Positions 14,646-61,353 of a stretch of DNA of 64,000 bases are shown piece after piece. The notes under the pieces are model-generated. The model was not told the origin of the DNA and did not search any database. It saw only the letters and a program-made list of their open reading frames with translations. Each line of letters starts with the position of its first letter. Within the stretch, counting starts at the first letter, position 1. Made by a program: the position numbers and the translations under genes. Origin of the DNA: Candidatus Phycocordibacter aenigmaticus (GTDB lineage Bacteria; Patescibacteriota; Minisyncoccia; Phycocordibacterales; Phycocordibacteraceae); contig CP174359.1 in NCBI GenBank assembly GCA_045401115.1, positions 652,667 through 716,666 of the forward strand. Direction: 5' to 3'.

Positions 14646-15359
14646 CTATGCTATGTGTTTTTCCTCAGAAAGAGCGCGCGCTGCAGCTTTTTGTTCAGCG
14701 TCTTGTTTTGACCTTCCTTCACCTTTACAAATTACGATATCTCCCACTGAGAGCGAAACTATGAAATGTTTATCGTGATCAGGACCCTCGGCACGTACCA
14801 CCTCATAATGTGGTGTCATGCCGTATTTTGCTTGCGCTAATTCTTGAAACGCACTTTTAGCATCTTTCCATGCTCCTGTTTCCACCACCTCATCAATACG
14901 TGTTACCACATGCTTTGTTATAAATTGTCGAGCGGTTTCATACCCTTGATCAAGGTAAAGCGCACCAATTACCGCTTCAAAGGTATTCGCTAAAAGGCTG
15001 GTACGGGCACGTTCAAGATCTTTTGCTTCACCACGAGAAAGAAAGAGAGGTTCATGCATGGAAAGAGATTCAGCTACAGAAGCAAGCATTGAAGTGTTCA
15101 CTAACGCGGCACGATACGCTGTCAGCACCCCTTCAGGAGTCTCTGGGTAATGTTCAAAAATATAATCAGTAACCACTAACTCAAGCACTGCGTCGCCAAG
15201 AAACTCGAGACGCTCGTTGTGCTCAATTGGCATATTCGATTCGTTTACATAAGACCGGTGCGTGAAGGCGGTACGAAGTAAGTCTATATCATTAAAAGAA
15301 ACACCTATACGATTCTGGAACTCATCTAAGGCTCTCTGAGGGTTACTGTTCATATACAT
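14646..15359 (-). CDS. rnc: Ribonuclease III
   Basis: 237 aa. RNase III signature ERLEFLGDAVLELVV plus a C-terminal dsRBD-like region. Confidence 0.9.
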   Translation of the reverse strand: MYMNSNPQRALDEFQNRIGVSFNDIDLLRTAFTHRSYVNESNMPIEHNERLEFLGDAVLELVVTDYIFEHYPETPEGVLTAYRAALVNTSMLASVAESLSMHEPLFLSRGEAKDLERARTSLLANTFEAVIGALYLDQGYETARQFITKHVVTRIDEVVETGAWKDAKSAFQELAQAKYGMTPHYEVVRAEGPDHDKHFIVSLSVGDIVICKGEGRSKQDAEQKAAARALSEEKHIA

Positions 15360-16237
15360 TTCTGCTGCGCCACCACCATACCTAAATTCATGATACCGCG
15401 CAAATCTTCATAACAATCAAGTGATTCTAATTCCTCGGCAGTAAACCACTGCGCGTCAGTCACATTTTCTTCTTTTTGAATACGTAACGGGGTTTTAGCA
15501 CTGCACGCAACAAAGTATCCGACACGACGTGTGACTACACCGACATCTGGATCATGTGCTGTATATTCATGTTCACCAATAGGAGCAGTGACTTTTTTCA
15601 ACTCTATACCTAATTCCTCTTGTGCAACACGTACTGCTGCTCCGTCGGAAAGTTCTTTACCTTGATAGTGTGTCTTAGGGAGCGTCCATACATTAAACGG
15701 GTCAAGGACCAATGCTACATACAATGTGTCATTCTCAAACGAACACACCATGACACCAGCAAGATGTTCAACTTCGGTATGTTTCTTTTCTTCAGGTGCC
15801 TCTTCTTTACGTGGACTGCCCATATCACGATACACCGCCCCCAATACACCATTTATAAAACGTCCACTTGAATCTCCTCCAAATGTTTTTGCAAGTTCTA
15901 TCGCTTCATTAAGAGCTACTTTTGGAGGTACTGAAATTGATGTGCCAAAGAGAAGCTCAAATAATCCGATACGAAGAATATTCCGATCAACAGCAGCGAT
16001 TTTCTCAATTGGCCATTGCGGTGCCGCTTTACGAATAACCGCATCAATTTCACTTCGCTTTACTGTAATACCGCGTACCAACTTTAGAGAAAAAGCAGCA
16101 TCTTCATCTTCATGCGGAAGAGCAGCAGTGTTCTTTTGTAATGTTTCAGTAACAGTGTCACATGATAGGTCACCATACACATCTGCCGCAAACAGTGCTT
16201 GTAATACGCTAATACGTGAAAGATGTCGTGATGCCAT
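15350..16237 (-). CDS. nusB: Transcription antitermination factor NusB fused to a C-terminal Nudix hydrolase domain
   Basis: The first ~140 aa are NusB-like (ISVLQALFAADV...FINGVLGAV). The C-terminal ~150 aa carry a Nudix-box-like E-x7-RVAQEELGI core. It is one uninterrupted 295-aa ORF. Confidence 0.7.
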   Translation of the reverse strand: MASRHLSRISVLQALFAADVYGDLSCDTVTETLQKNTAALPHEDEDAAFSLKLVRGITVKRSEIDAVIRKAAPQWPIEKIAAVDRNILRIGLFELLFGTSISVPPKVALNEAIELAKTFGGDSSGRFINGVLGAVYRDMGSPRKEEAPEEKKHTEVEHLAGVMVCSFENDTLYVALVLDPFNVWTLPKTHYQGKELSDGAAVRVAQEELGIELKKVTAPIGEHEYTAHDPDVGVVTRRVGYFVACSAKTPLRIQKEENVTDAQWFTAEELESLDCYEDLRGIMNLGMVVAQQKCI

Positions 16238-23328: not shown

Positions 23329-26300
23329 TTAGGAAACTCTGACGTCGAATGCTTGTGCGAGCGCAATCTTGAGGTTAGTGAATTGTGAGGTGTAACTGGT
23401 ATCAAGTGCGTGAGCAAATACCTCAACCAGTTCTGAAAGCGCCGCATCAGAAACCGTTGCTGCCTTTTCTTTAATATCCAAGTCATTAAACTCAGTGCCT
23501 GTTTTGCGCGATCGGCAGAGACGGTCAAGTGTGGTGGCAATTGCTGTTGCGAACCGTGTTGCTGATACTCCTTCAGACTCTATCTTTGCAAGCAATGTAA
23601 ACGCCTCGTCACGATTACCTGAGAGTAATGCGGCAACAAATCGATTCACTGCTTCACCTTCAAGTGCTGGAGCTTTTGCATCTGACTGCGCATGAGATGT
23701 GTGTGCCGGCGCTTCAGGTGACTCTTCTACCACTGACTCCTCCTGTGGAGTGTTTGTTGACTCGGTCGCGCGGATTAACTCACGAACACGAGTGCCTGAG
23801 AGATGGATCCATCCGTCTTCACGTGGAATAGTGCGTACGGCCTCATTCAGTACGTCACCAAACGCTTTAAGTGTTTCGGCACGTTCGGTACGTAAATGAG
23901 TCGCAACCATCACAGCTTCTGGTGAGAGGAGGATGCCTGCAGCGTGTGCACGTGACTCAATAACATCACTTAACTCAGGCAACGCACCTGCGGCATTTGG
24001 TGTGTATACTACCGACGGACGTGATGCCGGTGCAGCGTGTCTTTGAGGTGCCGGCGCTACTGATGGCGCCATAGTTGCAGCAGCAACTGGTTCTACATCA
24101 CGCTCAAACTCATCCGCTTCATTAAACTGCGGTGCTGCTGTTGTATTGTCATATGATGGCGGTTCATAGTCGTGGTAATCACGAGCATTAGATGTTTGCG
24201 GCACTATGCCAATACGCTCTGCAAAGAACCGTAGACTACCGCGCCCAATAAGGACATAGGTAATGCCGAGACTCCATAGCGCGACTGCCAACCAGAAGAG
24301 CATAGTCAGGAATGGACCTGCCTCAAAACCAGTATATGGAACCTGTGCCAGTGATACGAATGATGCGCCGAGCACCTCACCTCCTGGAGCACTCGCCAAA
24401 GAGACGTTTGGCTGATTTAAACCACCACCACAATTAGTACAACCGGTATTAACACGAACTTCCGCAGAACAAGTGACATCACCATGGGGACCTGAGAAAG
24501 TTGCAGTGTAATTAGTATCAGTTGATGGGAACAATGTATTAGTTGTGCCGCCTCCAACCGGAGATATTGAACCAACATTATTATCAATGCTGCCGCTCGT
24601 TACGTTCGCTGAGGTCCAAGTCAGTGTAATTGAGTCACCAGTATCAATCTGTGAATCAGATGCGGTAAGTGTACACGCAGGTACTGGATCTGGTGGTTGA
24701 TTCACGGTTACTGTAGTGCTACAGCTTGTTGTGTCGCCTGCACTGTTTTTTGCAACACCAGTAAATGTTCTCGTGCTTGTCAGCGGAACAGTATCTTTTG
24801 AACCACTACCAATACTTACTGAACCGATACCTTGATTAATTTCAAAAGAAACGGCATTTTGTGTACTCCACTGGAGTGTTGAAGTTGCATTGAGGTCAAC
24901 CACACTTGGGTTTGAGGTGAGTGTACACACTGGAGCATTAGGTGTAGGAGGTGGATCAATAGTAATAGAACACGTACGCTCTGCGCCAGCACTGTTTCTC
25001 ACTTTAAGGTTGTAGGTACCTGCGCCCACGGTCTTTGAACCATCTTGTGGTGTGATGCCAGCACCGTTAAGGAATGCGGCAGCAGCATTGCTAATAGTCC
25101 AACTCAATTCTGTAGTAGTTTCACCCATAGCAATTGCTGGTGCATCAATAGTACACACTGGAGGGTTAGTCACCACCTGTTTGTTTTTAAAGACGACTGC
25201 GGCACATGAAGACCCACTTGGTACATTCACTACACCGCCTGATGGGGTCACTGAAATCAAATCCCATGAACTACCCGCGTCCACTTCAGTCACTGTATGT
25301 AGTCCAGGAGTGACGTTATCAAAACGTGCGTGTCCATTAGCGTCTGAGGTAACAGTTCGACTACCTAGTTTAAAGGTGAACTGCGCAACCGGTGTGAGCG
25401 GTGCTCCGGTAGTATCAAACGTTTCTTTCAGAATACGGATACATCCAGGGGCTGGAGGTATTGGCGGCGGATCAATAGTAATAGAACATGTACGTTCAGC
25501 ACCGGCGCTATTTCTCACTTTGAGGTTGTAGGTACCTGCGCCCACGGTCTTTGAACCATCTTGTGGTGTGATGCCAGCACCGTTAAGGAATGCGGCAGCA
25601 GCATTGCTAATAGTCCAACTCAATTCTGTAGTAGTTTCACCCATAGCAATTGCTGGTGCATCAATAGTACACACTGGAGGGTTAGTCACCACCTGTTTGT
25701 TTTTAAAGACGACTGCGGCACATGAAGACCCACTTGGTACATTCACTACACCGCCTGATGGGGTCACTGAAATCAAATCCCATGAACTACCCGCGTCCAC
25801 TTCAGTCACTGTATGTAGTCCAGGAGTGACGTTATCAAAACGTGCGTGTCCATTAGCGTCTGAGGTAACAGTTCGACTACCTAGTTTAAAGGTGAACTGC
25901 GCAACCGGTGTGAGCGGTGCTCCGGTAGTATCAAACGTTTCTTTCAGAATACGGATACATCCAGGGGCTGGAGGAGGAGTTTCAACAGTAATTGCTGCCG
26001 TACAGGTGGCAGTATCTCCGGCACTGTTTTGAACAGTACCAGTATATACGAACGTACCTGCACTTCCTGGTGTTATAGATTTTGTCCCATTTGCAATTGG
26101 ACTCGTCCAAAGAGAGAGCGCTCCCACTCCACGATTAATAGAAAAACTTGTTGCGTTGCGTGTTTCCCACGTAATATCAGCATCTTCGCCGAGTTCAATA
26201 GTACTTGGTGCGATGGACATTGTACATACAGGTGGCTGGATTTGCGGAGCAACAGTGACCGTATCAGAACACGTAGCGGTGCGACCAGTAGCACTCGTTA

Positions 26301-26742
26301 CCGTCATAGTGTATGTGGTACTTCCGACCGGAGGAGTAACTGAACGGGTACCGTTTGAGATATTTACCGCCCCAATATTTTGATTAATAGTTGCAGTACT
26401 TGCACGCGTGGTCGTCCAAGACAGGTTGGTGCTGTCACCAAAAGACAGAGAAGATGGGTTCGCGGTAAGTGTACATACTGGAGTAATGTGACCGCCACCG
26501 CCGCCACCGCCATCACCGCCACCGCCGCCGATAGTGCCACCGCCGCCGCCCCAACCGCCGCCACCACCACCGCCGCCGTCGTGCTTAATACAAGTATGAC
26601 AACTAATAATCGCGTTGGCAGTATTGATACCTCGATCCACAACACTTTCTGAAAGGTCCACTGTAAACCATGCCCCGGCAAAAAGCAGGATAAATATAAA
26701 AAATGAACGAGCAATGGTGTTATATACGTTGTTATTTATCAT
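23329..26742 (-). CDS. Giant cell-surface protein with N-terminal signal/anchor, poly-Gly tract, about 7 Cys-bracketed Ig-like repeats, a TM helix and a ~350-aa cytoplasmic tail
   Basis: 1137-aa ORF with N-terminal hydrophobic FFIFILLFAGAWF. A Gly tract (GGGGGGGGWGGGGGTIGGGGGDGGGGGGG) is encoded by the GCC/ACC-repeat DNA at about 26490..26580. Repeated ~85-aa modules follow the pattern PVCT...LxW...TCxxTITV, alternating with prealbumin/Cna-B-like modules. The motif VPYTG is followed by a TM helix and basic residues (RGSLRFF). The start overlaps the upstream sortase stop (ATGA). Confidence 0.75.
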   Translation of the reverse strand: MINNNVYNTIARSFFIFILLFAGAWFTVDLSESVVDRGINTANAIISCHTCIKHDGGGGGGGGWGGGGGTIGGGGGDGGGGGGGHITPVCTLTANPSSLSFGDSTNLSWTTTRASTATINQNIGAVNISNGTRSVTPPVGSTTYTMTVTSATGRTATCSDTVTVAPQIQPPVCTMSIAPSTIELGEDADITWETRNATSFSINRGVGALSLWTSPIANGTKSITPGSAGTFVYTGTVQNSAGDTATCTAAITVETPPPAPGCIRILKETFDTTGAPLTPVAQFTFKLGSRTVTSDANGHARFDNVTPGLHTVTEVDAGSSWDLISVTPSGGVVNVPSGSSCAAVVFKNKQVVTNPPVCTIDAPAIAMGETTTELSWTISNAAAAFLNGAGITPQDGSKTVGAGTYNLKVRNSAGAERTCSITIDPPPIPPAPGCIRILKETFDTTGAPLTPVAQFTFKLGSRTVTSDANGHARFDNVTPGLHTVTEVDAGSSWDLISVTPSGGVVNVPSGSSCAAVVFKNKQVVTNPPVCTIDAPAIAMGETTTELSWTISNAAAAFLNGAGITPQDGSKTVGAGTYNLKVRNSAGAERTCSITIDPPPTPNAPVCTLTSNPSVVDLNATSTLQWSTQNAVSFEINQGIGSVSIGSGSKDTVPLTSTRTFTGVAKNSAGDTTSCSTTVTVNQPPDPVPACTLTASDSQIDTGDSITLTWTSANVTSGSIDNNVGSISPVGGGTTNTLFPSTDTNYTATFSGPHGDVTCSAEVRVNTGCTNCGGGLNQPNVSLASAPGGEVLGASFVSLAQVPYTGFEAGPFLTMLFWLAVALWSLGITYVLIGRGSLRFFAERIGIVPQTSNARDYHDYEPPSYDNTTAAPQFNEADEFERDVEPVAAATMAPSVAPAPQRHAAPASRPSVVYTPNAAGALPELSDVIESRAHAAGILLSPEAVMVATHLRTERAETLKAFGDVLNEAVRTIPREDGWIHLSGTRVRELIRATESTNTPQEESVVEESPEAPAHTSHAQSDAKAPALEGEAVNRFVAALLSGNRDEAFTLLAKIESEGVSATRFATAIATTLDRLCRSRKTGTEFNDLDIKEKAATVSDAALSELVEVFAHALDTSYTSQFTNLKIALAQAFDVRVS
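24962..25993 (-). repeat. Exact in-frame tandem duplication (2 x 516 bp) inside the surface-protein gene
   Basis: About 470 bp are identical at period 516, for example the 25001.. and 25517.. copies of ctttRaggttgtaggtacctgcgcccacggtctttgaacc... This yields two identical 172-aa protein units and the identical plus-strand shadow ORFs 25052..25531 and 25568..26032. Confidence 0.85.
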
Positions 26743-27365
26743 AGAATAGAATGGGTACTATAGAACGCCTCAACAACATAACGTTCACCTGGTTCACCAA
26801 ATGAGTTACATGTTGAAAGGATTAAGTTTTGTGAATTTTCTTTAAGTGGAATCAATGCGTCTGATGCCTGCACTAATGATACGGACTGAACAGTATACTC
26901 ATACAGAGTGTTATCTGAATATACTTTGATCACGTCGCCGGCTGAAAGTTTTTGAAGACCGTTAAAAGCTTTAAAAGCTTTGTTTTGTACAACAGGCAAA
27001 CCGCTTTGGTGACCAAAAAGGAACATCGTGGATCGTTCCCCTAAACGCGCCGACCCTGGATATCGCACTGCTCCGTTAAGTAGCGCATTATCAAGGTCGG
27101 TAATGGCTGTTGATGTAGGATTTTCAATCTTTGTATCAACACCAATAGACGGTATTACGACACGAGTTGGTGCCTCAACATATTGAGGCATTTCCACTGG
27201 GGTTTCCTCTGATGCAGTTTCAGCAGCAACAGATTCCTCTTGTTGCGGTGCTTCTGGTACAAAGTCAACGAGAAAAAGTATCACTGCTGTGATGAAAAAT
27301 ACACCGAAAAATACCATTAACAAACGGATTGGGTGTATATCACGATTTGATACTCTTTGCGTCAT
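26739..27365 (-). CDS. Sortase-family transpeptidase
   Basis: 208 aa with an N-terminal TM anchor. Conserved sortase blocks are VIPSIGVDTKI, RYPGSARLGE, MFLFGHQ and ILSTC (the TLxTC catalytic Cys motif). Confidence 0.75.
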   Translation of the reverse strand: MTQRVSNRDIHPIRLLMVFFGVFFITAVILFLVDFVPEAPQQEESVAAETASEETPVEMPQYVEAPTRVVIPSIGVDTKIENPTSTAITDLDNALLNGAVRYPGSARLGERSTMFLFGHQSGLPVVQNKAFKAFNGLQKLSAGDVIKVYSDNTLYEYTVQSVSLVQASDALIPLKENSQNLILSTCNSFGEPGERYVVEAFYSTHSIL

Positions 27366-28728: not shown

Positions 28729-30852
28729 TTAAATATCGAGATTAGCAGCTTTAGCATTACTTTGGATAAATGATTTTCGTGCAGGAACATCAGTGCCCAT
28801 AAGGATGTCAAAGATGCGGTCGGCTTCTTGTGCGTCGTTAATGGTTACCTGCTTCAATACCCGACGTTCCGGATCCATGGTGGTTTCCCAAAGCTCTTCC
28901 GGATTCATTTCACCGAGACCTTTGTATCGTTGTAGTGAGAATTTACTCTGACGCTTTTTCTTTGCTGGTGTCTCCTCTTCTTCCTCATCTCCATTTTCAC
29001 CCTGTTCAGCTTCGACAAGATTTTCTACTTCATCAACATCTTGTTTACCAACAATGGCATTCTTCTCAGCTTCAGTGAAGGCGTAGAATACTTCTTTACC
29101 TTTCTTAATTTTGAAAAGAGGTGGTTGAGCAATATAGAGATATCCACCCTCTACCACTTCTTTGAAGTAGCGATAGAAAAGTGTGAGAAGAAGAGTGCGA
29201 ATGTGCGCACCGTCAACATCTGCGTCAGTCGCAATAATAATTTTATGGTAGCGTAATTTTGAAACATCAAATAAGTCACCGATTGCCGTACCGAGTGCTA
29301 CGACCAGCGCTTTGATTTCGTTTGATGCGAGCATCCGGTCAAGTCGTGCGCGCTCTACGTTTAAAATCTTTCCACGAAGCGGCAAGATGGCTTGCGTGCG
29401 ACGATCACGACCCTGCTTACTTGAGCCACCTGCAGAGTCTCCCTCCACGATGAACAACTCAGATTCTTCAGCACTTCTACTTTGACAGTCAGCAAGTTTA
29501 CCCGGTAAGGTCATACCCTCAAGCGCGCCCTTTCTCAGTACTGAGTCTTTTGCTGCCTTTGCCGCTTTACGTGCTTTAAGTGCAAGTAAACTCTTACTAC
29601 AAATAGACCGTGCTTCATCAGGATGCGTTTCCAAAAAGTCCGCGAAACTTTCTGCAAACACAGTGTCTACCGCGCCACGTGCTTCAACCGAGCCGAGTTT
29701 TGCCTTGGTCTGTCCTTCAAACTGAATTTCCGGCATCTTTACCGAAATAACGGCAGTAATACCCTCGAGCACATCGTCACCAGTGAAATTCTCTTCTCCT
29801 TCTTTTACGAGTTTATTTTTACGGGCATAACTATTTAAAGTTCGCGTGAGCGCTGTCTTAAATCCAGTTACATGCATACCCCCTTCCGGCGTATGAATAT
29901 TGTTTGCAAATGCAGTCAACCTTCCAGAAATATCGTCAACATACTGAAGGGCAATCTCTACTGAAACATCTTCAACCTCTTTATCAATATAGAAAATTGT
30001 TTTATGCACCGCTTTTTGAGAACGGTTATTGAATGACACAAGAGAACGTAGTCCTCCTTCGAAATAAAACGTTTGTGATGGTGCCTGCAAGCCAAGGAAA
30101 CGTAGATATAACTCCCCACTTAAGTCAGGTACTGCAGTGTGTTCACGCAAATCCCATACCGCAATACGTGTTCCTTTTACTAAGTACGCCTGCTGACGTA
30201 GATGAGAAACGATACGCTTCCATTCATATACAACTTCTTTAAAGATTTCTTCGTCAGCTTCAAACGTAAGAATGGTACCGGTAAAATCTGAAGGTCCCAC
30301 TTTTTTTACTTTTGCCTTCGCCTTGCCACGTGCATATTCCTGCATGTAATGTGCACCGTCACGATGTACATCGACACGCGTATATACTGAGAGCGCGTTC
30401 ACGACCGACACACCAACTCCATGAAGACCACCGGATACTTTATAACCACTTTCATCACCGCCGAATTTACCACCAGCGTGAAGCGTGGTCATAATCGTTT
30501 CAAGTGCTGAAACTTTTGTTTGTTTATGTATATCAACCGGAATACCACGGCCATTGTCTACTACACGAATACGATTCCCAGGGAGAAGCGCCACCTCGAT
30601 ATCATTAGCAAAGCCACCCATCGCTTCGTCACGTGAGTTGTCAAAAACCTCCCAAATAAGGTGGTGCAGACCATCCGGACCAGTGGTGCCAATATACATA
30701 CCGGGACGTTTACGTACCGGTTCGAGTCCTTCAAGGACTGAAATCTGCTCTGCGCCGTATGAGCCTGCCGCCGCCTTTTTAGCGGTTTTCTTAGCAGCTG
30801 GTGCTTTTTTAGCAGCGCTTTTCTTGGTCGTTTTCTTAGGTGTATTAGGCAT
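28729..30852 (-). CDS. gyrB: DNA gyrase subunit B with Lys/Ala-rich N-terminal extension
   Basis: 707 aa. A KKTTKKSAAKKAPAAKK tail precedes SYGAEQISVLEGLEPVRKRPGMYIG (GHKL ATPase). TOPRIM and C-terminal GyrB regions follow. Confidence 0.9.
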   Translation of the reverse strand: MPNTPKKTTKKSAAKKAPAAKKTAKKAAAGSYGAEQISVLEGLEPVRKRPGMYIGTTGPDGLHHLIWEVFDNSRDEAMGGFANDIEVALLPGNRIRVVDNGRGIPVDIHKQTKVSALETIMTTLHAGGKFGGDESGYKVSGGLHGVGVSVVNALSVYTRVDVHRDGAHYMQEYARGKAKAKVKKVGPSDFTGTILTFEADEEIFKEVVYEWKRIVSHLRQQAYLVKGTRIAVWDLREHTAVPDLSGELYLRFLGLQAPSQTFYFEGGLRSLVSFNNRSQKAVHKTIFYIDKEVEDVSVEIALQYVDDISGRLTAFANNIHTPEGGMHVTGFKTALTRTLNSYARKNKLVKEGEENFTGDDVLEGITAVISVKMPEIQFEGQTKAKLGSVEARGAVDTVFAESFADFLETHPDEARSICSKSLLALKARKAAKAAKDSVLRKGALEGMTLPGKLADCQSRSAEESELFIVEGDSAGGSSKQGRDRRTQAILPLRGKILNVERARLDRMLASNEIKALVVALGTAIGDLFDVSKLRYHKIIIATDADVDGAHIRTLLLTLFYRYFKEVVEGGYLYIAQPPLFKIKKGKEVFYAFTEAEKNAIVGKQDVDEVENLVEAEQGENGDEEEEETPAKKKRQSKFSLQRYKGLGEMNPEELWETTMDPERRVLKQVTINDAQEADRIFDILMGTDVPARKSFIQSNAKAANLDI

Positions 30853-31047
30853 CTATATAAGCATTAAAAATGGCGCCTCGCGGGCCTCATATATTATACC
30901 ATCCGTATGCGTGAAAATCTCCCACATATAACCCCCCTCGTCAGGACTTCAATAGTCCCCGTTCTTTCCTCGATACACTCTGATTCATCCCCGCAACGGG
31001 GTTGATGGGTATGGACGGGAGGCTCATTTTTACATACACTAGAGGCT

Positions 31048-32184
31048 ATGACCAACATCAATATCCCTCGTGACGAAGAGCGCGCACTTATCAACAAACT
31101 TGACGAACGCACTGACGCTGAGGCGGCACGTATTAAGCGTTATCTTAGTATGCCTGACCTCTCCCGTACCCCGAGCAGTCCTCTTGCTGATATGGTGGAA
31201 CGAGTAAAGAGTGTCCCTACACTTAAGGATTTTGATGATATTACTATTCCTGAGGTGGTGCCAGCAAACATCTGCTTTGACCTCTTTGATTTCACAGCCG
31301 ACCATCCCGCTCGTTCAAAATCAGATACGTATTATCTTGATGAAGAAAATATCCTACGCACACATGATACGGTCTTTTGGTACTACTACTTACACCTACC
31401 TGAGGTACAAGAGAAAATTAAAGCCGGTGAATCGTTTGGCACCGTTTGTTACGGAAAGGTATATCGTAAAGATGAGATTGACCGGCACCATATGAATGTG
31501 TTTCATCAATTCGGCGGCTGGTTTCTACAGCCCGACTCAGAAGGTATTCTTGAGCTTGACTCACTCAAAGCAGTGCTCTCTGAGGTGGTTGAAAGTGTTT
31601 TTGGAGAGGATGCTGAATATCGTTTTAATGAAGACACATTCCCCTACACCGATCCCTCTCTTGAAGTAGAGGTGAAGATTAACGGTGAATGGATTGAGAT
31701 TTTAGGTGGCGGTATGCCTAAAAAATCAGTGCTTAAGAATATGGGCATTGAGGGATATAACGGCTGGGCATTTGGTTTCGGTCTGGAGCGTCTCGCTATT
31801 ATTTCTATGAAACTCCCTGATATTCGCCTTTTATGGAGTGATGATGAACGCGTAACAAAACAGCTCACACTTGGTCAAGAATTCCAAGAAGTATCTAAAT
31901 ATCCACCAGTTATTCGTGATATTTCTTTTATTGTACCGAATACTTTCACCCCAAATGATTACTTTGATATGGTGCGTGATACTGTGGGCGACGATATGGT
32001 CGAAGAGGTTGAACTCCTTGATAAATATGAGAATGAAGAAAAGTTTGGTGTTGGTAAATTAAGTTATGCATATCGTATTGTGTATCGCTCTCTGGATCGC
32101 ACACTCACGAGTGAAGAGGTGGATGCGCTCCATAAGAAGCTTGAAGCGGCAACAGTAGAACACTTCGATGCCGAGGTTCGCTAA
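31048..32184 (+). CDS. pheS: Phenylalanine--tRNA ligase, single-chain type: PheS catalytic core fused to a C-terminal FDX-ACB anticodon-binding-like domain
   Basis: 378 aa with class II motif 3 (GWAFGFGLERLAII). The last ~95 aa (PPVIRDISFIVP...VEEVELLDKYEN...GKLSYAYRIVYRSLDRTLTSEEVDALHKKLE...HFDAEVR) match the FDX-ACB fold normally at the PheT C-terminus or in mitochondrial monomeric PheRS. The usual PheS N-terminal coiled-coil is reduced. Confidence 0.8.
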   Translation: MTNINIPRDEERALINKLDERTDAEAARIKRYLSMPDLSRTPSSPLADMVERVKSVPTLKDFDDITIPEVVPANICFDLFDFTADHPARSKSDTYYLDEENILRTHDTVFWYYYLHLPEVQEKIKAGESFGTVCYGKVYRKDEIDRHHMNVFHQFGGWFLQPDSEGILELDSLKAVLSEVVESVFGEDAEYRFNEDTFPYTDPSLEVEVKINGEWIEILGGGMPKKSVLKNMGIEGYNGWAFGFGLERLAIISMKLPDIRLLWSDDERVTKQLTLGQEFQEVSKYPPVIRDISFIVPNTFTPNDYFDMVRDTVGDDMVEEVELLDKYENEEKFGVGKLSYAYRIVYRSLDRTLTSEEVDALHKKLEAATVEHFDAEVR

Positions 32185-32204: not shown

Positions 32205-32240
32205 TAAAACACCAGATACGTATCTGGTGTTTTTTAAAAC
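32205..32240 (+). terminator. Intrinsic terminator downstream of pheS (aaaacaccagatacgtatctggtgtttttt)
   Basis: 9-bp stem plus T-run, read directly from the sequence. Confidence 0.65.
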
Positions 32241-33136
32241 CCACTCACTCTATAAAAAAGTTCGCCATCTTTAATATACAGAGATCCGTCAATAACACGG
32301 AATACTGCTTGAGGCGCAGTAGCAACTTGTACGAGCAATCTGGGCTGACGTATGTCTGCTTCAACCAAAAAGACGCCTGAGTGTTCAGTTTGGTATAGCA
32401 CCCCGCCGGCAAAGAACTGCGCATGAGTCACTGTTTTTTTGCCTTCCTCAAGAAAGAAATGGGAAACACAAAGGGATGGGCGTGTACAAAATGAGCTTGG
32501 TGGTGCAGTATTGCGTGTCCATTTTAAAAGTAAATTACCGTTATTGATCACCAACGCTGCTCCGTCACTTTCTGCAACAGGTAGTGATGGCTCAGCGGTA
32601 TCGTGCTGTGTGCTTGACGCGACTGTATTTACATCATTATCAGTGGTAGTGCTTACTGTAAATGCTTCTTGCAGGCGAATATACTCTCGCTCACTTACAT
32701 ACTGTGTGGTCGATGTCGCATTAGTCGTGGTTGCATGTATTTCAAGGTCCTGCTCTACCTGTACAAGCCTCATCTCAATGGGTTGCGGTACCACAAACAT
32801 TGAAGCATTAGTCACTAACTGAGACTCAACAACGATGTCTTTTGACCATGTATGATAACCGTCTTTTCTCCCCTGCACTACATACGACCCCGGTTCGATA
32901 TTATCTAAAAAGAAAGACTTTGAAAAAAGACTTGTACGGCCAATCACTTCACCATTCAGGTGTATTGAAGTTCCTGAGATTGGTGCCGAAAGATATACTC
33001 CTCCATTTGAAACAAGCGAAAAGCCATCAAGACGATACCCTGACGCATAAAGCACTACAATAGGCGTAATGAGCGCAAAGAGCGCAAAAAATAGCAATGA
33101 TACGATACGGCGCGTTTTAAGAGAGAGCGGTTCCAT
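32234..33136 (-). CDS. Membrane-anchored hypothetical protein with PEGA-like domain
   Basis: 300 aa with an N-terminal TM (IVSLLFFALFALITPIVVLYASGY). The block GEVIGRTSLFSKSFFLDNIEPGSYVVQGRKDGYHTW resembles a PEGA domain. It lies downstream of the GT2 synthase gene. Confidence 0.5.
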   Translation of the reverse strand: MEPLSLKTRRIVSLLFFALFALITPIVVLYASGYRLDGFSLVSNGGVYLSAPISGTSIHLNGEVIGRTSLFSKSFFLDNIEPGSYVVQGRKDGYHTWSKDIVVESQLVTNASMFVVPQPIEMRLVQVEQDLEIHATTTNATSTTQYVSEREYIRLQEAFTVSTTTDNDVNTVASSTQHDTAEPSLPVAESDGAALVINNGNLLLKWTRNTAPPSSFCTRPSLCVSHFFLEEGKKTVTHAQFFAGGVLYQTEHSGVFLVEADIRQPRLLVQVATAPQAVFRVIDGSLYIKDGELFYRVSGF

Positions 33137-50866: not shown

Positions 50867-52309
50867 TTATATCACGTCTTGCGGACAGTATGCAGCCAGC
50901 TCAGGAGTAAGCGTGTTGCAGATACGTCTTGTTTTCTCCACGCTATACCATCCATCTAAATCACCAAGAACTTCTGTATAGCAAGCATCCTTATGGGTCA
51001 CTGAAAGGGTCGCATCTGCACAAAAATCAAGCGCGGCTTCATATTCTTTTTCTGGAATTCCATGTTCAAGGAGACCGTGAGCAAAACCAGCGATACACCG
51101 GTTTTGGTGTGTACCAAGTCGACGACATACATCAACAACCTCAGCACTATTGAAAGACGGCAATTCATTGTACGCATACAAACCTGCAAGATATTCAAGG
51201 GCCACATTCAAATGCGGTTCTTTTGTGCCTGAAAGCACTGCTTGAGCTGCAGGGAGGAATTGATTATCGGCCATCCAGAAAATAACCGAGTTCATGTTAC
51301 CGTAGCATGATTCAGCATACTGTCCTTCTTGTGCAGCGCACAGAGTAACCGGGTTTTCTTTTGACACATCCAATCCATACTCATTATTAATATATAAATT
51401 TGCAATGCCGTTAAATAAACCTGACGCACAACGGAATCGTTCTTCCTCCCCCTCTGACGCAACTTCACATTGCGCAAGTGCCGCATCTATTACTGCCGAT
51501 ACGCTGCCAAATTCTCCTGTATTCGCAATAAAAGTTTCCATCACCCCATGGCCAATGCCGTGATAACACTGCAAACGTGCATCGGGCGCATCCCGCCCCA
51601 CTGCTTCGCCAATCGCTTCACACACACCGCCGGCACTCGCAATATCATCGGTGGCACCAAGATATGCTTCCATAAAACCATGATGGAAGCCTGAAGCACA
51701 TGCTGACGCTTTTGGTGTCATGATTGAATTTGAGTCTTTACGATAAAATCCATAACTTGCCAAGCCAATATTATGCGCAATGTAGTGACAAGACTGCGCA
51801 AACTCAGGTTCGCTTTCATAGAGTTCAGCCACTTTGTCATACGCTGCGCCAAGCCCATCTTCAGCAAGTGCAAGAAAAATATCGTCCTGCCAGCACGCAA
51901 GATTACCTCCCCGAGAAATACAACTATCTGTTAATTCACCATCTACACCAGTGACGCGTACGATACCAAAATAAAATGGTGCGAGATGGTCATGATATTT
52001 AAAAAGACCTGATTCCGTGAAGGTAAACTCCCACGTGGCTCCTGGCGGCAGTGCTTGTTGCGTATCAAACTCGGGATATGCTTCGTGTGTTGGATGAAAA
52101 TCAGAAGCCGGCCAAAAATATTTGTTACTTCTATTAACAAATGTCACTGTCTCCCCCACAGCAACCGTAATCTCAGTTGGTGAAAAACCATTTTCAGTGA
52201 GCAGCACAGTACGCGGCGGTGTTACTATCAGATTGATAAGTAACACCAAGCCCGTTATCATTATAACGCTCCCAACTCCAACCAATACTCCTTTTTTATT
52301 TTTATTCAT
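50867..52309 (-). CDS. Paralog family member A1: TM anchor + cupredoxin-like domain + Cys/His-rich helical repeats
   Basis: The cupredoxin-like block (GETVTFVNRSNKYFWPASDFHPTHEAYPEFD...TWEFTFTESGLFKYHDHLAP) is followed by repeats such as SCHYIAHNIGLASYGFY, CASGFHHGFMEAYL and CYHGIGHGVMETF. Start trimmed to Met15. Confidence 0.65.
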   Translation of the reverse strand: MNKNKKGVLVGVGSVIMITGLVLLINLIVTPPRTVLLTENGFSPTEITVAVGETVTFVNRSNKYFWPASDFHPTHEAYPEFDTQQALPPGATWEFTFTESGLFKYHDHLAPFYFGIVRVTGVDGELTDSCISRGGNLACWQDDIFLALAEDGLGAAYDKVAELYESEPEFAQSCHYIAHNIGLASYGFYRKDSNSIMTPKASACASGFHHGFMEAYLGATDDIASAGGVCEAIGEAVGRDAPDARLQCYHGIGHGVMETFIANTGEFGSVSAVIDAALAQCEVASEGEEERFRCASGLFNGIANLYINNEYGLDVSKENPVTLCAAQEGQYAESCYGNMNSVIFWMADNQFLPAAQAVLSGTKEPHLNVALEYLAGLYAYNELPSFNSAEVVDVCRRLGTHQNRCIAGFAHGLLEHGIPEKEYEAALDFCADATLSVTHKDACYTEVLGDLDGWYSVEKTRRICNTLTPELAAYCPQDVI

Positions 52310-53780
52310 AAACAAAATCGTATGAGCAATATTTCTGATACGGTTCCTCAATAGTATTACATATATCCGCTACCTTCTCTTTTGTATAAATCCCCTTAAA
52401 GGTGCGAGTAATATTCCAGTAGCATACGTCCCGTTCATGAGCAGTGAGTATGTCGGTACGACAAAAATCCAAAGCTTTTTCATATTCACGATTTGGCTCG
52501 CCAAAGGCTGCAAATGCACCCGTTAATCCTTTCATACAATCTGTTTGTAAAAACTGCGGTAAGCGCCGGCAGTCATATACTAAATCGGAAAAATCATCTT
52601 CAAGAATACGTGCGCCAAGTGCACCAGCAGCAAATGAATTAATAATCGTACCGGCAATCAAATCGTCAGGAATAGTGGAGATGTGTTTCTCATATATCAT
52701 TCCCATATCAATATTTACCTCAGTATTGAGTTTCATTGCGACTTCGTAGTAGCACGCACGTGCAATTTCATCACTTTCAAATGAAGCGCATAATATAAAC
52801 GGTTTATCATCAGAATAATGTAATCCAAATTGATTGTTCCACATCCAGTCAGCGATGACATTAAAGGCGCCTTGGAGGCATTGTTCACGCAGCGGAGTCT
52901 CTTTAAGTCGATCACACGCGGTGAGGGCGGGAGCAACTAACTTTTCTGTATTTCCCCAATCTTCAATATTAAGGGGTTCAGGGACAAAGCCGTGCCCAAT
53001 GGCGTGATAGCAGTTTAATTGTATCCATGGCAATTCATCTTCACGTCCGGTAAGGTTCTCACAAATTTCAAGTGCGAGATCGTAGTCCGGTTCATCGCGC
53101 AGGAAATGCTCAAGGAATCCATGGTAGTAACCGTAGCCACAGTACGAAGTTTCCGGCGGGAACTCCAATTTACTCATGTCTTTGTGACCAAGATACAAAC
53201 CATACTCAACTTCACCGAGTTTGTGTGCCATCCAGTGACATCCGATAGAACTAAATTCGGGTTCGTTTTCATACAGCTCTTCGAAGAGTGCGAACGACTC
53301 TTTTACTCCCTCAGTTTCTAACGTATTGGCAAGTTCCCGTTCCCAACATGCCTGTTTTTCTGACGCGCTTAATTCATCAGAACGTTCAATACAACTCACC
53401 ACTTCAGTGACATCACCTACAAGAATCTGGCCTCGAAAGTAGGGACGGAGATGGTCGTGGTACCACCACACACCATCTTTTTTAAACGTAAACTCCCAAC
53501 GCTCACCCGGTTTTATCGGCCTACCCACATCAAACTCGCTGTATATTTCATGTAGTGGATGGTTGTCGGATGCGACCCACAACGAATGACTACTCTTGTT
53601 TAAAAAAGTAACTGTGTCCCCTGAATCAATCACGAGTTTCTTTGGCGAGAAGCCACTGTCTTTTAGAACGACTGTGTTTGGCGTTAACGGCTGATACTGA
53701 GACAATGCCAATCCTCCCACAAGAAACGTGAGTGCGAGAATGCTAATAATGATGAGAGCGGGTCGTAAAAAAATATTCAT
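52302..53780 (-). CDS. Paralog family member A2 (cupredoxin-like + Cys/His-rich repeats)
   Basis: 492 aa. GCHWMAHKLGEVEY, YCGYGYYHGFLEHFL and NCYHAIGHGFVPEP. Near-identical to A3 over long stretches at the nucleotide level. Confidence 0.65.
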   Translation of the reverse strand: MNIFLRPALIIISILALTFLVGGLALSQYQPLTPNTVVLKDSGFSPKKLVIDSGDTVTFLNKSSHSLWVASDNHPLHEIYSEFDVGRPIKPGERWEFTFKKDGVWWYHDHLRPYFRGQILVGDVTEVVSCIERSDELSASEKQACWERELANTLETEGVKESFALFEELYENEPEFSSIGCHWMAHKLGEVEYGLYLGHKDMSKLEFPPETSYCGYGYYHGFLEHFLRDEPDYDLALEICENLTGREDELPWIQLNCYHAIGHGFVPEPLNIEDWGNTEKLVAPALTACDRLKETPLREQCLQGAFNVIADWMWNNQFGLHYSDDKPFILCASFESDEIARACYYEVAMKLNTEVNIDMGMIYEKHISTIPDDLIAGTIINSFAAGALGARILEDDFSDLVYDCRRLPQFLQTDCMKGLTGAFAAFGEPNREYEKALDFCRTDILTAHERDVCYWNITRTFKGIYTKEKVADICNTIEEPYQKYCSYDFVYE

Positions 53781-53814
53781 AGCGTACTCTTACATGCTCG
53801 ATATATGTACTGCG

Positions 53815-55290
53815 CTATTCATATGAGTATTCATAAGAGCAGTATTCTTTATATGGCTCTGCAATATTGGTACATACCTCTGCCATTTTCTCTTTTGTAT
53901 AAACCCCTTTAAAGGTGCGGGTAATATTCCAGTAACATGTGTCTCTTTCTTTCTCTGTAAGTATATTCATACTGCAAAAATCTATTGCCTTTTCATATTC
54001 ACGATTTGGCTCGCCGTATGCCACAAATGCACCCGTTAATCCTTTCATACAATCTGTTTGTAAAAACTGCGGTAAGCGCCGGCAGTCATATACTAAATCG
54101 GAAAAATCATCTTCAAGAATACGTGCGCCAAGTGTAGTTGCCATAAATGAATTAATGACCATACCTGCGATTCTTTCGTTTGGTATATCAGAAACATATT
54201 TCTCATGCGCCAATATGACATCGTTATCAACCTTTGGATTTAACTTCATTGCCACTTCGTAGTAACACGCTTCTGATGTATACGTATCTTCAAAAAGAGC
54301 ACATATTTCAAGTGGTGTGTCGTCTGGGAAATACAAACCAAATTGGTTATTCCACATCCAGTCAGCGATGACATTGAAGGCACCTTGGAGACATTCAACA
54401 CGAAGTGCCTGCTCGTCAAGCCGATTACACGCATTCAGTGCAGGTGCTACCAGCTCTTTTGGCTTCCCCCACTCTTCAATATCGAGTGGTTCGGGAACAA
54501 AGCCGTGTCCTATGGCGTGGTAGCAATTCAACCGTATGCGTGGCAATTCATCTTCACGGCCGGTAAGATTCTCACAAATTTCAAGTGCGAGATCGTAGTC
54601 CGGTTCATCGCGCAGGAAATGCTCAAGGAATCCATGGTAGTAGCCGTAACCACAGTACGAAGTTTCCGGCGGGAACTCCAATTTACTCATGTCTTTGTGG
54701 CCAAGGTAAACGCCATACTCAACTTCACCGAGTTTGTGTGCCATCCAGTGACATCCAATTTGACTAAACTCAGGCTCACTCTCGTATAATTTTTTAAAGA
54801 GTACAAATGATTCCTTCACCCCTTCAATTTCCAGGGTATTGGCAAGTTCCCGCTCCCAACATGCTTGCTTCTGTGATGTATTCAACTCGTCGGAGCGTTC
54901 AATACAACTCACCACTTCAGTGACATCACCTACAAGAACCTGGCCGCGAAAGTAGGGACGGAGATGGTCGTGGTACCACCACACACCGTCGTTCTCGAAT
55001 GTGAACTCCCAACTCTCGCCGGGCTGTATGGGCCTGCCTATATCAAATTCAGTATAGATGTCATGTTGTGGATGGTTGTCGGATGCAACCCATAACGAAT
55101 GACTGCTCTTGTTTAAAAAAGTCACTGTACCCCCTGAGTCAACCACGAGTTTCTTTGGTGAAAAACCACCATCTTTCAGTACGACTGTGTTTGGTGCTAA
55201 GGATTCATAATTGGAGACCACGATTCCGGCCGCGAAAAATGCGAAAGCAAGAATACTGATGATAATACTGGGTCGTAAAAAAATATTCAT
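53815..55290 (-). CDS. Paralog family member A3 (cupredoxin-like + Cys/His-rich repeats)
   Basis: 491 aa. About 85% identical to A2 (same motifs). For example nt 54040..54130 equals 52530..52620. Confidence 0.65.
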   Translation of the reverse strand: MNIFLRPSIIISILAFAFFAAGIVVSNYESLAPNTVVLKDGGFSPKKLVVDSGGTVTFLNKSSHSLWVASDNHPQHDIYTEFDIGRPIQPGESWEFTFENDGVWWYHDHLRPYFRGQVLVGDVTEVVSCIERSDELNTSQKQACWERELANTLEIEGVKESFVLFKKLYESEPEFSQIGCHWMAHKLGEVEYGVYLGHKDMSKLEFPPETSYCGYGYYHGFLEHFLRDEPDYDLALEICENLTGREDELPRIRLNCYHAIGHGFVPEPLDIEEWGKPKELVAPALNACNRLDEQALRVECLQGAFNVIADWMWNNQFGLYFPDDTPLEICALFEDTYTSEACYYEVAMKLNPKVDNDVILAHEKYVSDIPNERIAGMVINSFMATTLGARILEDDFSDLVYDCRRLPQFLQTDCMKGLTGAFVAYGEPNREYEKAIDFCSMNILTEKERDTCYWNITRTFKGVYTKEKMAEVCTNIAEPYKEYCSYEYSYE

Positions 55291-55323
55291 AGTGATGTTA
55301 TTCTCCTCACTGTATATACTGCG

Positions 55324-56796
55324 TTATTCATACGTACAATATTTTTGATACGGTGCCGCAATCAGTGCGCACACTTTTTCCATTTTATCTTTTAGATACA
55401 CTGCTTCAAATGTACGGACAATATTCCAGTAACAAATATCTCTCTCTTCTTCAGATAGTATATCCAAATTACAAAAATCAATTGCTTTTTTGTATTCGTT
55501 CTCTGGTTCACCAGCAGCCATAAATGCTGCAGATAATCCTTTCATGCAGTCTGTCTGTAAGAATTCTGGTATCTGCCTGCACTCATACACAAAACGGGAA
55601 AAGTCGTTGTTGAGAATGTCTTGACCAAGAGCGCTCGCTGCAACAGAACTCAGCACCATACCTGCAATAGCTTCATCGGGTATATGAGATATGTATTTAT
55701 TATATGCACGCACAATATTATTATCAACACTCGGGTTCAGTCGCATTGACACCTCGTAATAACACGCAGACTTCTTTTCATGATCATCAAAAGATGCGCA
55801 GAGAGCAAGAGGTTTATCTTCTGGGTAGTACAAACCAAATTGGTTATTCCACATCCAATCACCAATTACATTAAACGTCCCTTGATAACATTCGTGACGC
55901 TCGTCGTCACGGCTCATTCTCTCACATGCGTCTAACGCCGGAGCAACCATTTTCCGTGGGTCTCCCCACACTTCAACATCATCCGGCTCAGGAACAAATC
56001 CGTGACCGACCGCATGATAGCAGTTCAAGCGAATTCGTGGGATTCTATCTTCAAGTCTGGTAATGAGTGTTTGACAGAACTGGTTGGCGGCATCGTAATC
56101 AGGGTCGTCACGTAGGTAATGCTCCAGAAATCCATGATAGTAGCCGTATCCACAATACGATGTCTCCGGAGGAAATTCTAAACGAGAAAGATCTTTATGG
56201 GTTAGGAATTCGCTATACTCAACCTCACCAATTTTATGCGCCATCCAGTGACATCCAATAGTAGTAAAATCTTTATCTGTATTATACAGTTCAGTAAATA
56301 ATTCGAACGAAGCTGTGGTTCCATGTTCCTTAAGTTCGTTTGCAAGCTCTCGCTCCCAGCACGACTGTTTATCCTCAATTGACGCTCCTTCGAGTTCATC
56401 GAGACAACTCTTTGATTCGTCGGCATTACCCACCACCACTTTTCCGTTGTAGTAAGGGCGCAGATGGTCGTGATACCACCAGACTCCCTCTTTTTCAAAA
56501 GTAAACGTCCACGATTCATTTTTCTCAAGTGGATGTCCTGCATCAAACTCCGTATATAAAGTATGCTGAGGATGATTATCAGAAGCAGGCCAAAATGAAA
56601 ATGAGCCTTTATTTATAAATGTTACCGTCTCCCCCACTTGAATTGCTATTCGCGAGGGATGAAAACCACCATCTTTAAAAACAACTGTGTTTGGTCCCAC
56701 AGGTGTATAGTTAGACACCACGATTCCGCCTACGAGAAACGCGAGTGCGAGAATGCTAATGATAATAAAAGCGGAAAGAGGTGCTGAAATTTTCAT
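55324..56796 (-). CDS. Paralog family member A4 (cupredoxin-like + Cys/His-rich repeats)
   Basis: 490 aa. GETVTFINKGSFSFWPASDNHPQH...WWYHDHLRPYY, GCHWMAHKIGEVEY and NCYHAVGHGFVPEP. Confidence 0.65.
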   Translation of the reverse strand: MKISAPLSAFIIISILALAFLVGGIVVSNYTPVGPNTVVFKDGGFHPSRIAIQVGETVTFINKGSFSFWPASDNHPQHTLYTEFDAGHPLEKNESWTFTFEKEGVWWYHDHLRPYYNGKVVVGNADESKSCLDELEGASIEDKQSCWERELANELKEHGTTASFELFTELYNTDKDFTTIGCHWMAHKIGEVEYSEFLTHKDLSRLEFPPETSYCGYGYYHGFLEHYLRDDPDYDAANQFCQTLITRLEDRIPRIRLNCYHAVGHGFVPEPDDVEVWGDPRKMVAPALDACERMSRDDERHECYQGTFNVIGDWMWNNQFGLYYPEDKPLALCASFDDHEKKSACYYEVSMRLNPSVDNNIVRAYNKYISHIPDEAIAGMVLSSVAASALGQDILNNDFSRFVYECRQIPEFLQTDCMKGLSAAFMAAGEPENEYKKAIDFCNLDILSEEERDICYWNIVRTFEAVYLKDKMEKVCALIAAPYQKYCTYE

Positions 56797-56805
56797 GGAG
56801 TCTTT

Positions 56806-58050: not shown

Positions 58051-58055
58051 ACAAT

Positions 58056-59057: not shown

Positions 59058-59059
59058 AG

Positions 59060-60091: not shown

Positions 60092-60095
60092 ACCT

Positions 60096-61313: not shown

Positions 61314-61353
61314 AAAACGTACTTAGTATATCAGAATCCTCACCAATACATTC

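Follow-up and report, generated by a model that had tools for sequence, protein, structure and literature searches.

Which enzyme charges tRNA-Phe in Candidatus (Ca.) Phycocordibacter aenigmaticus is a question raised by one gene in a 64,000-nucleotide stretch of its genome (contig CP174359.1, positions 652,667 to 716,666 of the forward strand), here termed the window, whose own numbering is used for the coordinates below. The gene is a complete coding sequence for 378 residues plus a TAA stop codon (31048..32184, + strand), and it joins on a single chain a PheS-type catalytic core and an FDX-ACB anticodon-binding domain resembling domain B8 of PheT. The (alpha-beta)2 heterotetramer is said to be conserved in all prokaryotic phenylalanyl-tRNA synthetases (PheRS), with the mitochondrial PheRS as the only monomeric class II core (2010 review, PMC3275996). 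We propose, with a probability of roughly 0.8, that the gene encodes the housekeeping PheRS of the cell, a member of the Paceibacteria (Patescibacteria, candidate phyla radiation), as an editing-free single chain that is very probably the only PheRS present. The same appears to hold for a broad group of these ultra-small bacteria. A monomeric state and activity toward Phe and tRNA-Phe are what we infer from the observed architecture, predicted fold, residue conservation, synteny and distribution.

The open reading frame (ORF) starts with ATG, its codons were checked, and its homologs align with residues 1-378 at 100% coverage. Residues 41-272 (31168..31863, + strand) match the PheS-type class II catalytic core (Pfam PF01409, tRNA-synt_2d; E 1.3e-52, 179 bits against a cut-off of 19.8), and residues 283-378 (31894..32181, + strand) match the PheT-B8-like FDX-ACB domain over its full length (PF03147, model positions 1-94 of 94; E 4.8e-21, 75 bits against a cut-off of 31.1); both scores far exceed chance. 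The linker between them (residues 273-282, 31864..31893, + strand) runs from the PheS C-terminus (...DERVTKQ) to the B8-like start (SKYPP...), as placed by the Pfam boundaries and by alignment with E. coli PheS and PheT B8. At the N-terminus, a short helical region (residues 1-40, 31048..31167, + strand) replaces the coiled coil of approximately 85-100 residues of canonical PheS: the Pfam scan gave no match to PF02912, nor to PF03483, PF03484 or PF17759, the TIGR00468 alignment begins at residue 33 of the protein (model position 61), and two short helices, residues 9-20 and 24-34, are all that an AlphaFold2 model places before the core. An earlier sequence-only reading of this DNA had described a PheS core and a C-terminal FDX-ACB domain on one chain, with the coiled coil reduced, and had proposed the PF03147 scan; the domain matches and the predicted fold bear this description out, and the FDX-ACB consensus motifs that it quoted are found as RDISFIV, VEEVELLDKY, GKLSYAYRIVYRS and TLTSEEV.

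The AlphaFold2 model, built from 50 homologs, has a predicted local distance difference test score (pLDDT) of 93.3 and a predicted template-modelling score (pTM) of 0.89, and shows the class II core preceded by the two N-terminal helices and followed by an alpha/beta C-terminal domain, with no disordered junction. Its top whole-chain Foldseek match is human mitochondrial PheRS in the closed state (3CMQ; template-modelling (TM) score 0.79/0.74, root-mean-square deviation 3.1 Å, E 5e-35, 34% identity); the open, tRNA-bound state of that enzyme (3TUP) gives a TM of 0.59, and canonical PheS chains (TM ~0.53) are matched in the core alone. Human mitochondrial PheRS is also the top sequence match in the PDB (E 3e-61, both domains), with bacterial PheS at E 6e-31 over the core only. 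Among curated families, the highest-scoring NCBIfam model is NF051887, 'PheS-related mystery ligase SrmL' (236.3 bits against a cut-off of 300), and the protein also falls below threshold for TIGR00469 pheS_mito (228.2 bits against 258.35) and TIGR00468 pheS (161.3 bits against 237.45); TIGR00472 pheT is matched in its B8 part alone (model positions 692-798; 66.5 bits against 402.65). With a low TIGR00468 score, no PF02912 and no adjacent pheT, the protein is not a canonical PheS. The term 'mitochondrial-type' used in the sequence-only reading holds for architecture and predicted fold and fails for family membership, given the score of 228 against a TIGR00469 cut-off of 258 and the position of the protein in a separate bacterial clade in rough trees.

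Like the mitochondrial enzymes (human FARS2, 3CMQ and 3TUP; yeast MSF1; TIGR00469; 'PheRS-M'), the window protein connects its PheS core to a PheT-B8/FDX-ACB domain through a short linker, has neither coiled coil nor editing domain, and carries an FPxT pocket, the motif-3 Ala, an Asp-x-aromatic motif and a C-terminal Arg for G34. It differs in its bacterial host, the absence of a presequence, a different N-terminal segment, an insertion of ~13 residues (WYYYLHLPEVQEKIKAGES) ahead of motif 2, and its separate clade in distance trees; furthermore, human Gln124 and Glu159 correspond to Trp111 and Gly156, and Asp107 has been gained. With canonical (alpha-beta)2 PheRS it shares the homologous PheS core and PheT B8, including the PheS C-terminal motif D-x-R-x-x-KQ, which is retained just before the linker, and the canonical pheST of Ca. 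Microsyncoccus PMX.50 adjoins gyrB, as does the window gene. Unlike canonical PheRS, it is encoded by one gene rather than two, and because the PF02912 coiled coil and all of domains B1-B7 (editing, catalytic-like module) are missing, the heterotetramer interface cannot form.

The residues expected of a PheRS active site are in place, with roles in the Phe pocket taken from the Safro-group review (PMC3275996). Within the core lie the motif-2 Arg140 (31465-31467, + strand) and Gln154, the Phe pocket Phe198-Pro-Tyr200-Thr201 (31639-31650, + strand), and motif 3, GWAFGFGLERL, with the specificity residue Ala241 (31768-31770, + strand). Arg140, Gln154, Phe198, Tyr200, Thr201, Ala241 and the motif-3 GLERL are invariant across 120 database homologs and 81 locus-encoded proteins. 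Phe198 and Tyr200 correspond to the ring-recognition pair Phe258/Phe260 of the Thermus enzyme (Tt), Tyr at the second aromatic position being the invariant state of eukaryotic cytosolic PheRS (PMC3275996); Thr201 corresponds to Tt Val261, E. coli Thr251 and human mitochondrial Thr235, and Ala241 to E. coli Ala294 and Tt Ala314.

The anticodon-binding residues are likewise conserved. In the M. tuberculosis PheRS-tRNA complex (PMC8136816), Asp745 (Tt 696) touches the A36 and A37 riboses, Asp778 (Tt 729) and Arg830 (Tt 780) touch G34, Phe780 (Tt Tyr731) stacks on G34, and Ser747 (Tt Ala698) touches A35. Motif alignment of the Tt and M. tuberculosis numbering suggests as their counterparts in the window protein Asp291 (31918-31920), Asp325 (32020-32022), the last residue Arg378 (32179-32181), Tyr327 (32026-32028) and Ser293, all + strand, which are invariant or nearly so in the clade; Ser339, aligned to Tt Ser742, is also conserved in the clade and completes the putative set of G34/A35/A36 readers.

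A homolog search of NCBI, JGI, ENA and Logan recovered more than 7000 proteins. The best 120 of these are all 375-400 residues long, all carry both domains, and are 69-75% identical to the window protein except for one at 96%; their sources are named as Paceibacteria, Kaiserbacteria, Colwellbacteria, Parcubacteria and Patescibacteria. The identical protein is present on one independent 1.7-kb contig. Among GTDB species representatives, a scan turned up 308 relatives, of which the best 80 loci (+/-10 kb) were retained, making 81 loci with the window; labels among the 80 are Kaiser-, Colwell-, Nomura-, Zambryski-, Vogel-, Jorgensen- and Doudnabacteria, among others. Homologs are named 'hypothetical protein' at NCBI and 'phenylalanyl-tRNA synthetase alpha chain' at JGI. 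Two sets of records appear to carry misleading taxon labels: a typical Paceibacteria fused PheRS (63% identity) lies on a 4.2-kb contig binned as 'Nitrospira sp.' (JBEBJM010000053.1, locus L077), which is probably mis-binned, and dozens of records for 'uncultured Candidatus Saccharibacteria bacterium' carry the Paceibacteria-type gene together with its synteny, which suggests generic mislabelling.

Representatives of clusters at 50% identity were searched exhaustively and then labelled by NCBIfam, giving three groups. Neighbour-joining trees, computed from BLOSUM62 distances with a single outgroup and without support values and used for coarse clade assignment only, likewise place the sequences in three clades: a eukaryote-like mito-type clade, a bacterial clade that contains the window protein together with representatives P0121, P0124, P0125 and P0131, and true SrmL, of which member P0245 scores 375.8 bits on NF051887. 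P0121, the nearest 50%-cluster representative (60% identity to the window protein), passes pheS_mito with 264.3 bits. P0124 (MBX7144632.1), from a 41-kb contig of an Oligoflexia metagenome-assembled genome (MAG), is a 414-residue fusion of PheS and FDX-ACB with 43% identity that keeps FPF and the motif-2 Asp; its host lies outside the candidate phyla radiation (CPR), and a normal pheST may coexist there.

Searches of the full-text literature found no publication describing a bacterial or CPR single-chain PheRS, nor SrmL; Mukai 2017 notes only a B2-less PheT in some CPR, Mukai 2022 deals with SepRS, and the supplements of the Minisyncoccus and Phycocordibacter papers contain no PheRS annotation. 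The single-chain PheRS of organelles is already known, as are thousands of database copies. What appears to be new is a distinct bacterial clade with its own insertion, active-site remodelling and apparent in-situ replacement of pheST.

The gene behaves as a housekeeping gene would. The window encodes rpoB, trmD, rpsP, RNase R, smc, rnc, a nusB-NUDIX fusion, rnhB, dnaE, thrS, gyrB, tsf, rpsB and prfA, in addition to a type IV pilin, a sortase-like gene and many secreted paralogs, at a GC content of ~44%. The syntenic partner of the PheRS gene is gyrB (28729..30852, - strand), which lies within 10 kb in 62 of the 81 loci: divergent and adjacent in 48, as in the window, co-directional and directly downstream in ten (among them the Doudnabacteria-type L078 and L081, and L048, L064, L021 and L023), and convergent in four. 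In the window the two genes are separated by a 195-bp divergent intergenic region (30853..31047) that presumably holds both promoters; a promoter and Shine-Dalgarno scan of this region found no convincing sigma-70 consensus or Shine-Dalgarno sequence, and an AGAGG (31041-31045) sits 2 nt before the ATG. Rfam identified only tRNA-Thr in the window, with no T-box or leader upstream of the PheRS gene. Across the related loci, tRNA-Thr(UGU), tsf, rpsB, prfA and thrS recur nearby, and a single PheS-like gene is present in each of the 80 loci. Across these loci, the median identity to the window counterpart is 66% for the single-chain PheRS, compared with 70% for GyrB, 60% for RF1, 54% for EF-Ts, 52% for ThrRS, 50% for S2 and 49% for DnaE.

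No PheT and no second PheS were found in 1.34 Mb (the 80 GTDB loci and the window) by tblastn with E. coli PheT and PheS. Within the 64 kb of the window, E. coli PheT matches the FDX-ACB domain only, and the gene that follows (32234..33136) is on the - strand, in agreement with the sequence-only reading, which had noted that no pheT follows. Canonical pheS-pheT pairs are present elsewhere in the class. In Ca. Yanofskyibacterium PMX_810_sub (Paceibacterales), pheT (00194; domains B3/4, CLM, B5 and FDX-ACB) adjoins pheS (00195; PF01409 and PF02912) (PMC10936435 supplementary gene table), and in Ca. Microsyncoccus PMX.50 the order is pheS (00316), pheT (00317), gyrB (00318), then secE, nusG and rplK (PMC9763046 supplementary gene table). 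The PheT of these pairs has no B2 tRNA_bind domain (B3/4, CLM, B5 and FDX-ACB only). The pheS-pheT-gyrB arrangement of PMX.50 matches, in position and gene order, that of SrmL and of the ten window-type loci with gyrB co-directional and downstream. Among the table rows listed for PMX.50 and PMX_810_sub, PF03147 occurs in PheT only, and no gene fuses PF01409 with PF03147.

The position beside gyrB is therefore a 'PheRS slot' that, across Paceibacteria lineages, holds the fused gene, pheS-pheT or SrmL, and never two of these together within +/-10 kb; the class is a mosaic of these three types. Two given genes in a genome of ~700 genes would be adjacent by chance with a probability of roughly 0.3%. 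Because the gyrB slot holds canonical pheS-pheT in another Paceibacteria genome, the fused gene most likely replaced pheST at the gyrB locus, which is the simplest reading of one genome together with incomplete tables. As the fused gene is most simply read as this replacement, a second pheST elsewhere is unlikely, and the fused protein is probably the sole PheRS of the cell. A CPR list of 43 markers (freshwater CPR paper) has a single Phe-tRNA synthetase entry, which lends weak support. The fused gene may have arisen by deletion between the PheS core and the last domain of PheT, since joining the end of pheS to the start of B8 would give exactly such a protein, or by displacement in situ.

Several points weigh against this interpretation. 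The 80 loci share synteny and are not a random sample, which makes the PheT negative weak by itself, and for the source genome it spans the 64-kb window, such that pheST could be located elsewhere. Canonical pheST occurs in some Paceibacteria, hence its absence is not to be assumed for the class, and the adjacency of pheST to gyrB is seen in one genome, PMX.50 (n = 1). The window protein is under every curated equivalog cut-off (pheS_mito, SrmL and pheS), and the sister family SrmL is labelled a 'mystery ligase' by NCBI curators. The universal motif-2 acidic residue is Gly and the position of Gln111 is Trp, which, judged from sequence, could alter amino-acid specificity. Finally, no tRNA-Phe gene, from which identity elements could be read, is present in the window or in 60 related loci.

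These points bear first on an alternative that we consider unlikely, in which the fused protein is an accessory paralog that acts in some other way on Phe or a tRNA-like substrate, as SrmL might, and pheS-pheT lies elsewhere in the genome. The canonical PheS and PheT of some Paceibacteria, the SrmL model as best NCBIfam match with no PheRS equivalog cut-off passed, and the related fused protein in the Oligoflexia MAG, presumably alongside a normal pheST, all speak for it. However, the fused gene, pheST and SrmL alternate beside gyrB without ever sharing a +/-10 kb locus, the rows listed for the two genomes with canonical pheST show no PF01409-PF03147 fusion, and the fused protein is more conserved than most translation genes. 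Moreover, its conserved Phe pocket and G34-reading set would make it a redundant PheRS in genomes of ~0.6-1 Mb.

SrmL itself was compared at its own loci. A search with true SrmL gave ~2900 matches, with names including Nomurabacteria, Minisyncoccia and Patescibacteria group. Four independent contigs carry SrmL beside gyrB (L085:10001-11194, L087:10001-11200, and L088 and L089:10001-11203) in the order [78-86 aa ORF]-SrmL-gyrB-thrS-L32-nusB/NUDIX-rnc-smc, which mirrors the window (smc-rnc-nusB/NUDIX-...-thrS-...-gyrB-PheRS). The flanking proteins are as similar to those of the window as in ordinary relatives (GyrB 68-71%, ThrRS 55-65%, SMC 41-42%), and SrmL itself is 34-36% identical to the window protein. 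The SrmL loci contain no window-type gene, canonical PheS or PheT within +/-10 kb, and SrmL is absent from the 80 window-type loci. SrmL thus looks like an alternative occupant of the gyrB slot; that it is a co-resident paralog was rejected as the default, because the two never occur together in the +/-10 kb loci and share the same slot. SrmL resembles the window protein in its two-domain architecture, similar length, Patescibacteria/Paceibacteria family and gyrB slot. It differs in its pocket, with HPY for FPY and ALG or ASG for AFG (HTS and HQxD are kept), and in its FDX-ACB domain, which is degenerate, carries a loop insertion and has lost the G34-stacking aromatic and C-terminal Arg, whereas the Asp-x-Tyr and Arg378 of the window protein are intact. 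SrmL illustrates what losing PheRS determinants looks like, and the window protein has none of that loss.

On every gyrB-linked SrmL contig, a conserved ORF of 78-86 residues with no Pfam match lies directly upstream of SrmL and could encode a partner subunit; these ORFs are at L085:9752-9988, L086:130-366, L087:9736-9993, and L088 and L089:9720-9980.

A change of amino-acid specificity, for example to another aromatic substrate, through Thr107Asp, Glu156Gly, Gln111Trp and Phe200Tyr, is less probable still than an accessory role. It draws on a pocket wall, 'HDTVFW' (31366..31380, + strand), that alignments indicate has been remodelled in a clade-specific manner. Asp107 (31366-31368), in 'RTHDT', stands where the other groups carry Thr; Trp111 (31378-31380) occupies the position of human mitochondrial Gln124; and Gly156 (31513..31515, + strand) replaces the Glu or Asp of the motif-2 FHQxE/DG (human mitochondrial Glu159) that is kept in E. 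coli PheS, the mito-type, SrmL and P0121. These three polar-wall residues differ from those of E. coli, Thermus and human mitochondrial PheRS and are fixed in the clade. The residues that recognize the ring and the para position are, however, canonical (Phe198, Tyr200, Thr201, Ala241 and the motif-3 Gly), the anticodon domain retains the readers of G34 (GAA), and Phe codons in the window proteins are used normally, such that a PheRS is required.

The changes at 107 and 156 are also coupled. Across all sequences compared, 203 have (Asp107, Gly156) and ~120 have a non-Asp with Glu or Asp, and mixed states are rare: L062, L071, P0121 and P0122 are (Thr,Asp), P0080 is (Asn,Asp), and L029 and L030 are (Asp,Asp). 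The (Asp,Asp) intermediates look like relocation of a charge rather than its loss, and the pattern, although the events are few and phylogenetically nested, is suggestive of a stepwise carboxylate relocation. Because Gln124 and Glu159 of human mitochondrial PheRS hydrogen-bond the meta-OH of meta-tyrosine (m-Tyr), and that enzyme, which has no editing, charges m-Tyr readily (PMC3275996), we propose that Thr107Asp/Glu156Gly together with Gln111Trp would relocate the carboxylate and remove both m-Tyr-stabilising groups, giving better discrimination in an enzyme that has no editing domain.

Marginally less probable again is that a true mito-type gene was recently acquired from a huge phage, a giant virus or a eukaryote. 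In favour of this, the window protein has the architecture and fold of mitochondrial PheRS, and single-chain PheRS is common on huge phages and giant viruses: such genes lie on 45 IMG/VR contigs (L092-L136), many of 200-530 kb, several of them giant-virus MAGs and one of 1.47 Mb, and on a phage-like ENA contig of 340,874 bp (L091:8001-9047). Like the window protein, the viral proteins are compact fusions of about 340-400 residues with no presequence. They are 28-45% identical to it and group with the mito-type clade, apart from two (L132 and L135) that group with SrmL, and none groups with the window clade. In these distance trees, which are crude and would permit an ancient transfer, the window clade stands apart from the eukaryote and virus clade, with no viral copy within it. 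Vertical conservation and synteny in at least 80 species of several candidate orders, and a base composition that is unremarkable for the window, also argue against a recent arrival. An artefact, in the form of a frameshifted or mis-assembled pheS-pheT or a pseudogene, can be dismissed, as an uninterrupted architecture of 375-400 residues recurs in independent homologs (best 120 of more than 7000; NCBI, JGI, ENA and Logan), the identical protein lies on an independent contig, and the high-confidence model has no disordered junction.

If the gene is indeed the housekeeping PheRS, the PheS-derived core would activate Phe with ATP by means of Arg140 and motif 3, hold it in the pocket formed by Phe198, Tyr200, Thr201 and Ala241, and transfer it to tRNA-Phe. 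The FDX-ACB domain would read the GAA anticodon, mainly at G34, by binding the stacked G34-A38 purines through Asp325, Tyr327 and Arg378, and, by analogy with human mitochondrial PheRS, it probably rotates on tRNA binding out of the modelled closed state into an open one, thereby positioning the acceptor end. With no B3/B4 editing domain, the enzyme would be incapable of proofreading Tyr-tRNA-Phe or m-Tyr-tRNA-Phe in cis.

At two of the 80 related loci, a stand-alone tRNA-binding protein of 122-134 residues with an oligonucleotide-binding (OB) fold is encoded directly upstream of the fused PheRS (L048:4631-5035 and L078:6859-7227). It resembles Trbp111 and PheT B2 (tblastn E 4e-11 to E. coli PheT residues 40-149), and in L078 its gene and the PheRS start share 4 nt, an overlap suggestive of translational coupling and of a trans-acting cofactor for tRNA binding; in these two lineages it may add tRNA affinity in trans.

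A broader scenario, in which the single-chain PheRS of bacteria, of huge phages and giant viruses, and of mitochondria have one origin and are no invention of eukaryotes, with the organellar enzyme derived from a bacterial or viral lineage, pheS-pheT displaced at gyrB in Paceibacteria, and the loss of editing offset by remodelling of the polar pocket wall (Thr107Asp, Glu156Gly, Gln111Trp) so that neither hydrogen-bond partner of the toxic analogue m-Tyr is left, is in our view doubtful.

Other features of the window include a NusB-NUDIX hydrolase fusion (15350-16237, - strand) that also occurs at L085:17189-18094, L087:16431-17330 and L088:15490-16389 and is conserved across these Paceibacteria lineages. 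The window GyrB has an N-terminal extension of ~30 Lys/Ala-rich residues (MPNTPKKTTKKSAAKKAPAAKKTAKKAAAG) before the ATPase domain. A predicted surface protein of 1137 residues (23329-26742, - strand) contains a poly-Gly tract as well as an almost perfect internal duplication of ~160 residues (APGCIRILKETFDTT...), and its gene adjoins a small sortase-like gene (26739-27365). Approximately twelve co-directional paralogs (50867-63799, - strand) encode Cys-rich proteins with signal or anchor sequences; four of ~490 residues (50867-56796) share an N-terminal cupredoxin-like segment, 'VTFxNxS...W..SDxHP', and are followed by relatives of ~330-420 residues up to the end of the window.

If the interpretation is correct, a very abundant environmental class of bacteria has a 378-residue single-chain PheRS, which would contradict the statement that all prokaryotes have the heterotetramer (PMC3275996). 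The single-chain PheRS would explain an annotation gap, in that the protein is 'hypothetical' at NCBI, and completeness scoring of CPR genomes with pheT markers (TIGR00472, COG0072) would be affected. One phylum would hold a reductive series from full PheT, through B2-less PheT, to B8 only, which bears on the origin of mitochondrial PheRS. As a very small PheRS, the protein could serve as a scaffold for an orthogonal synthetase. The greater novelty may lie in SrmL, which fills the same slot in sister lineages and has changes at both substrate-recognition sites. For the organisms themselves, the fused PheRS would be a natural bacterial model for coping without PheRS editing, and the coupled change at Asp107, Gly156 and Trp111 is a candidate, open to testing, for intrinsic discrimination against m-Tyr and Tyr.

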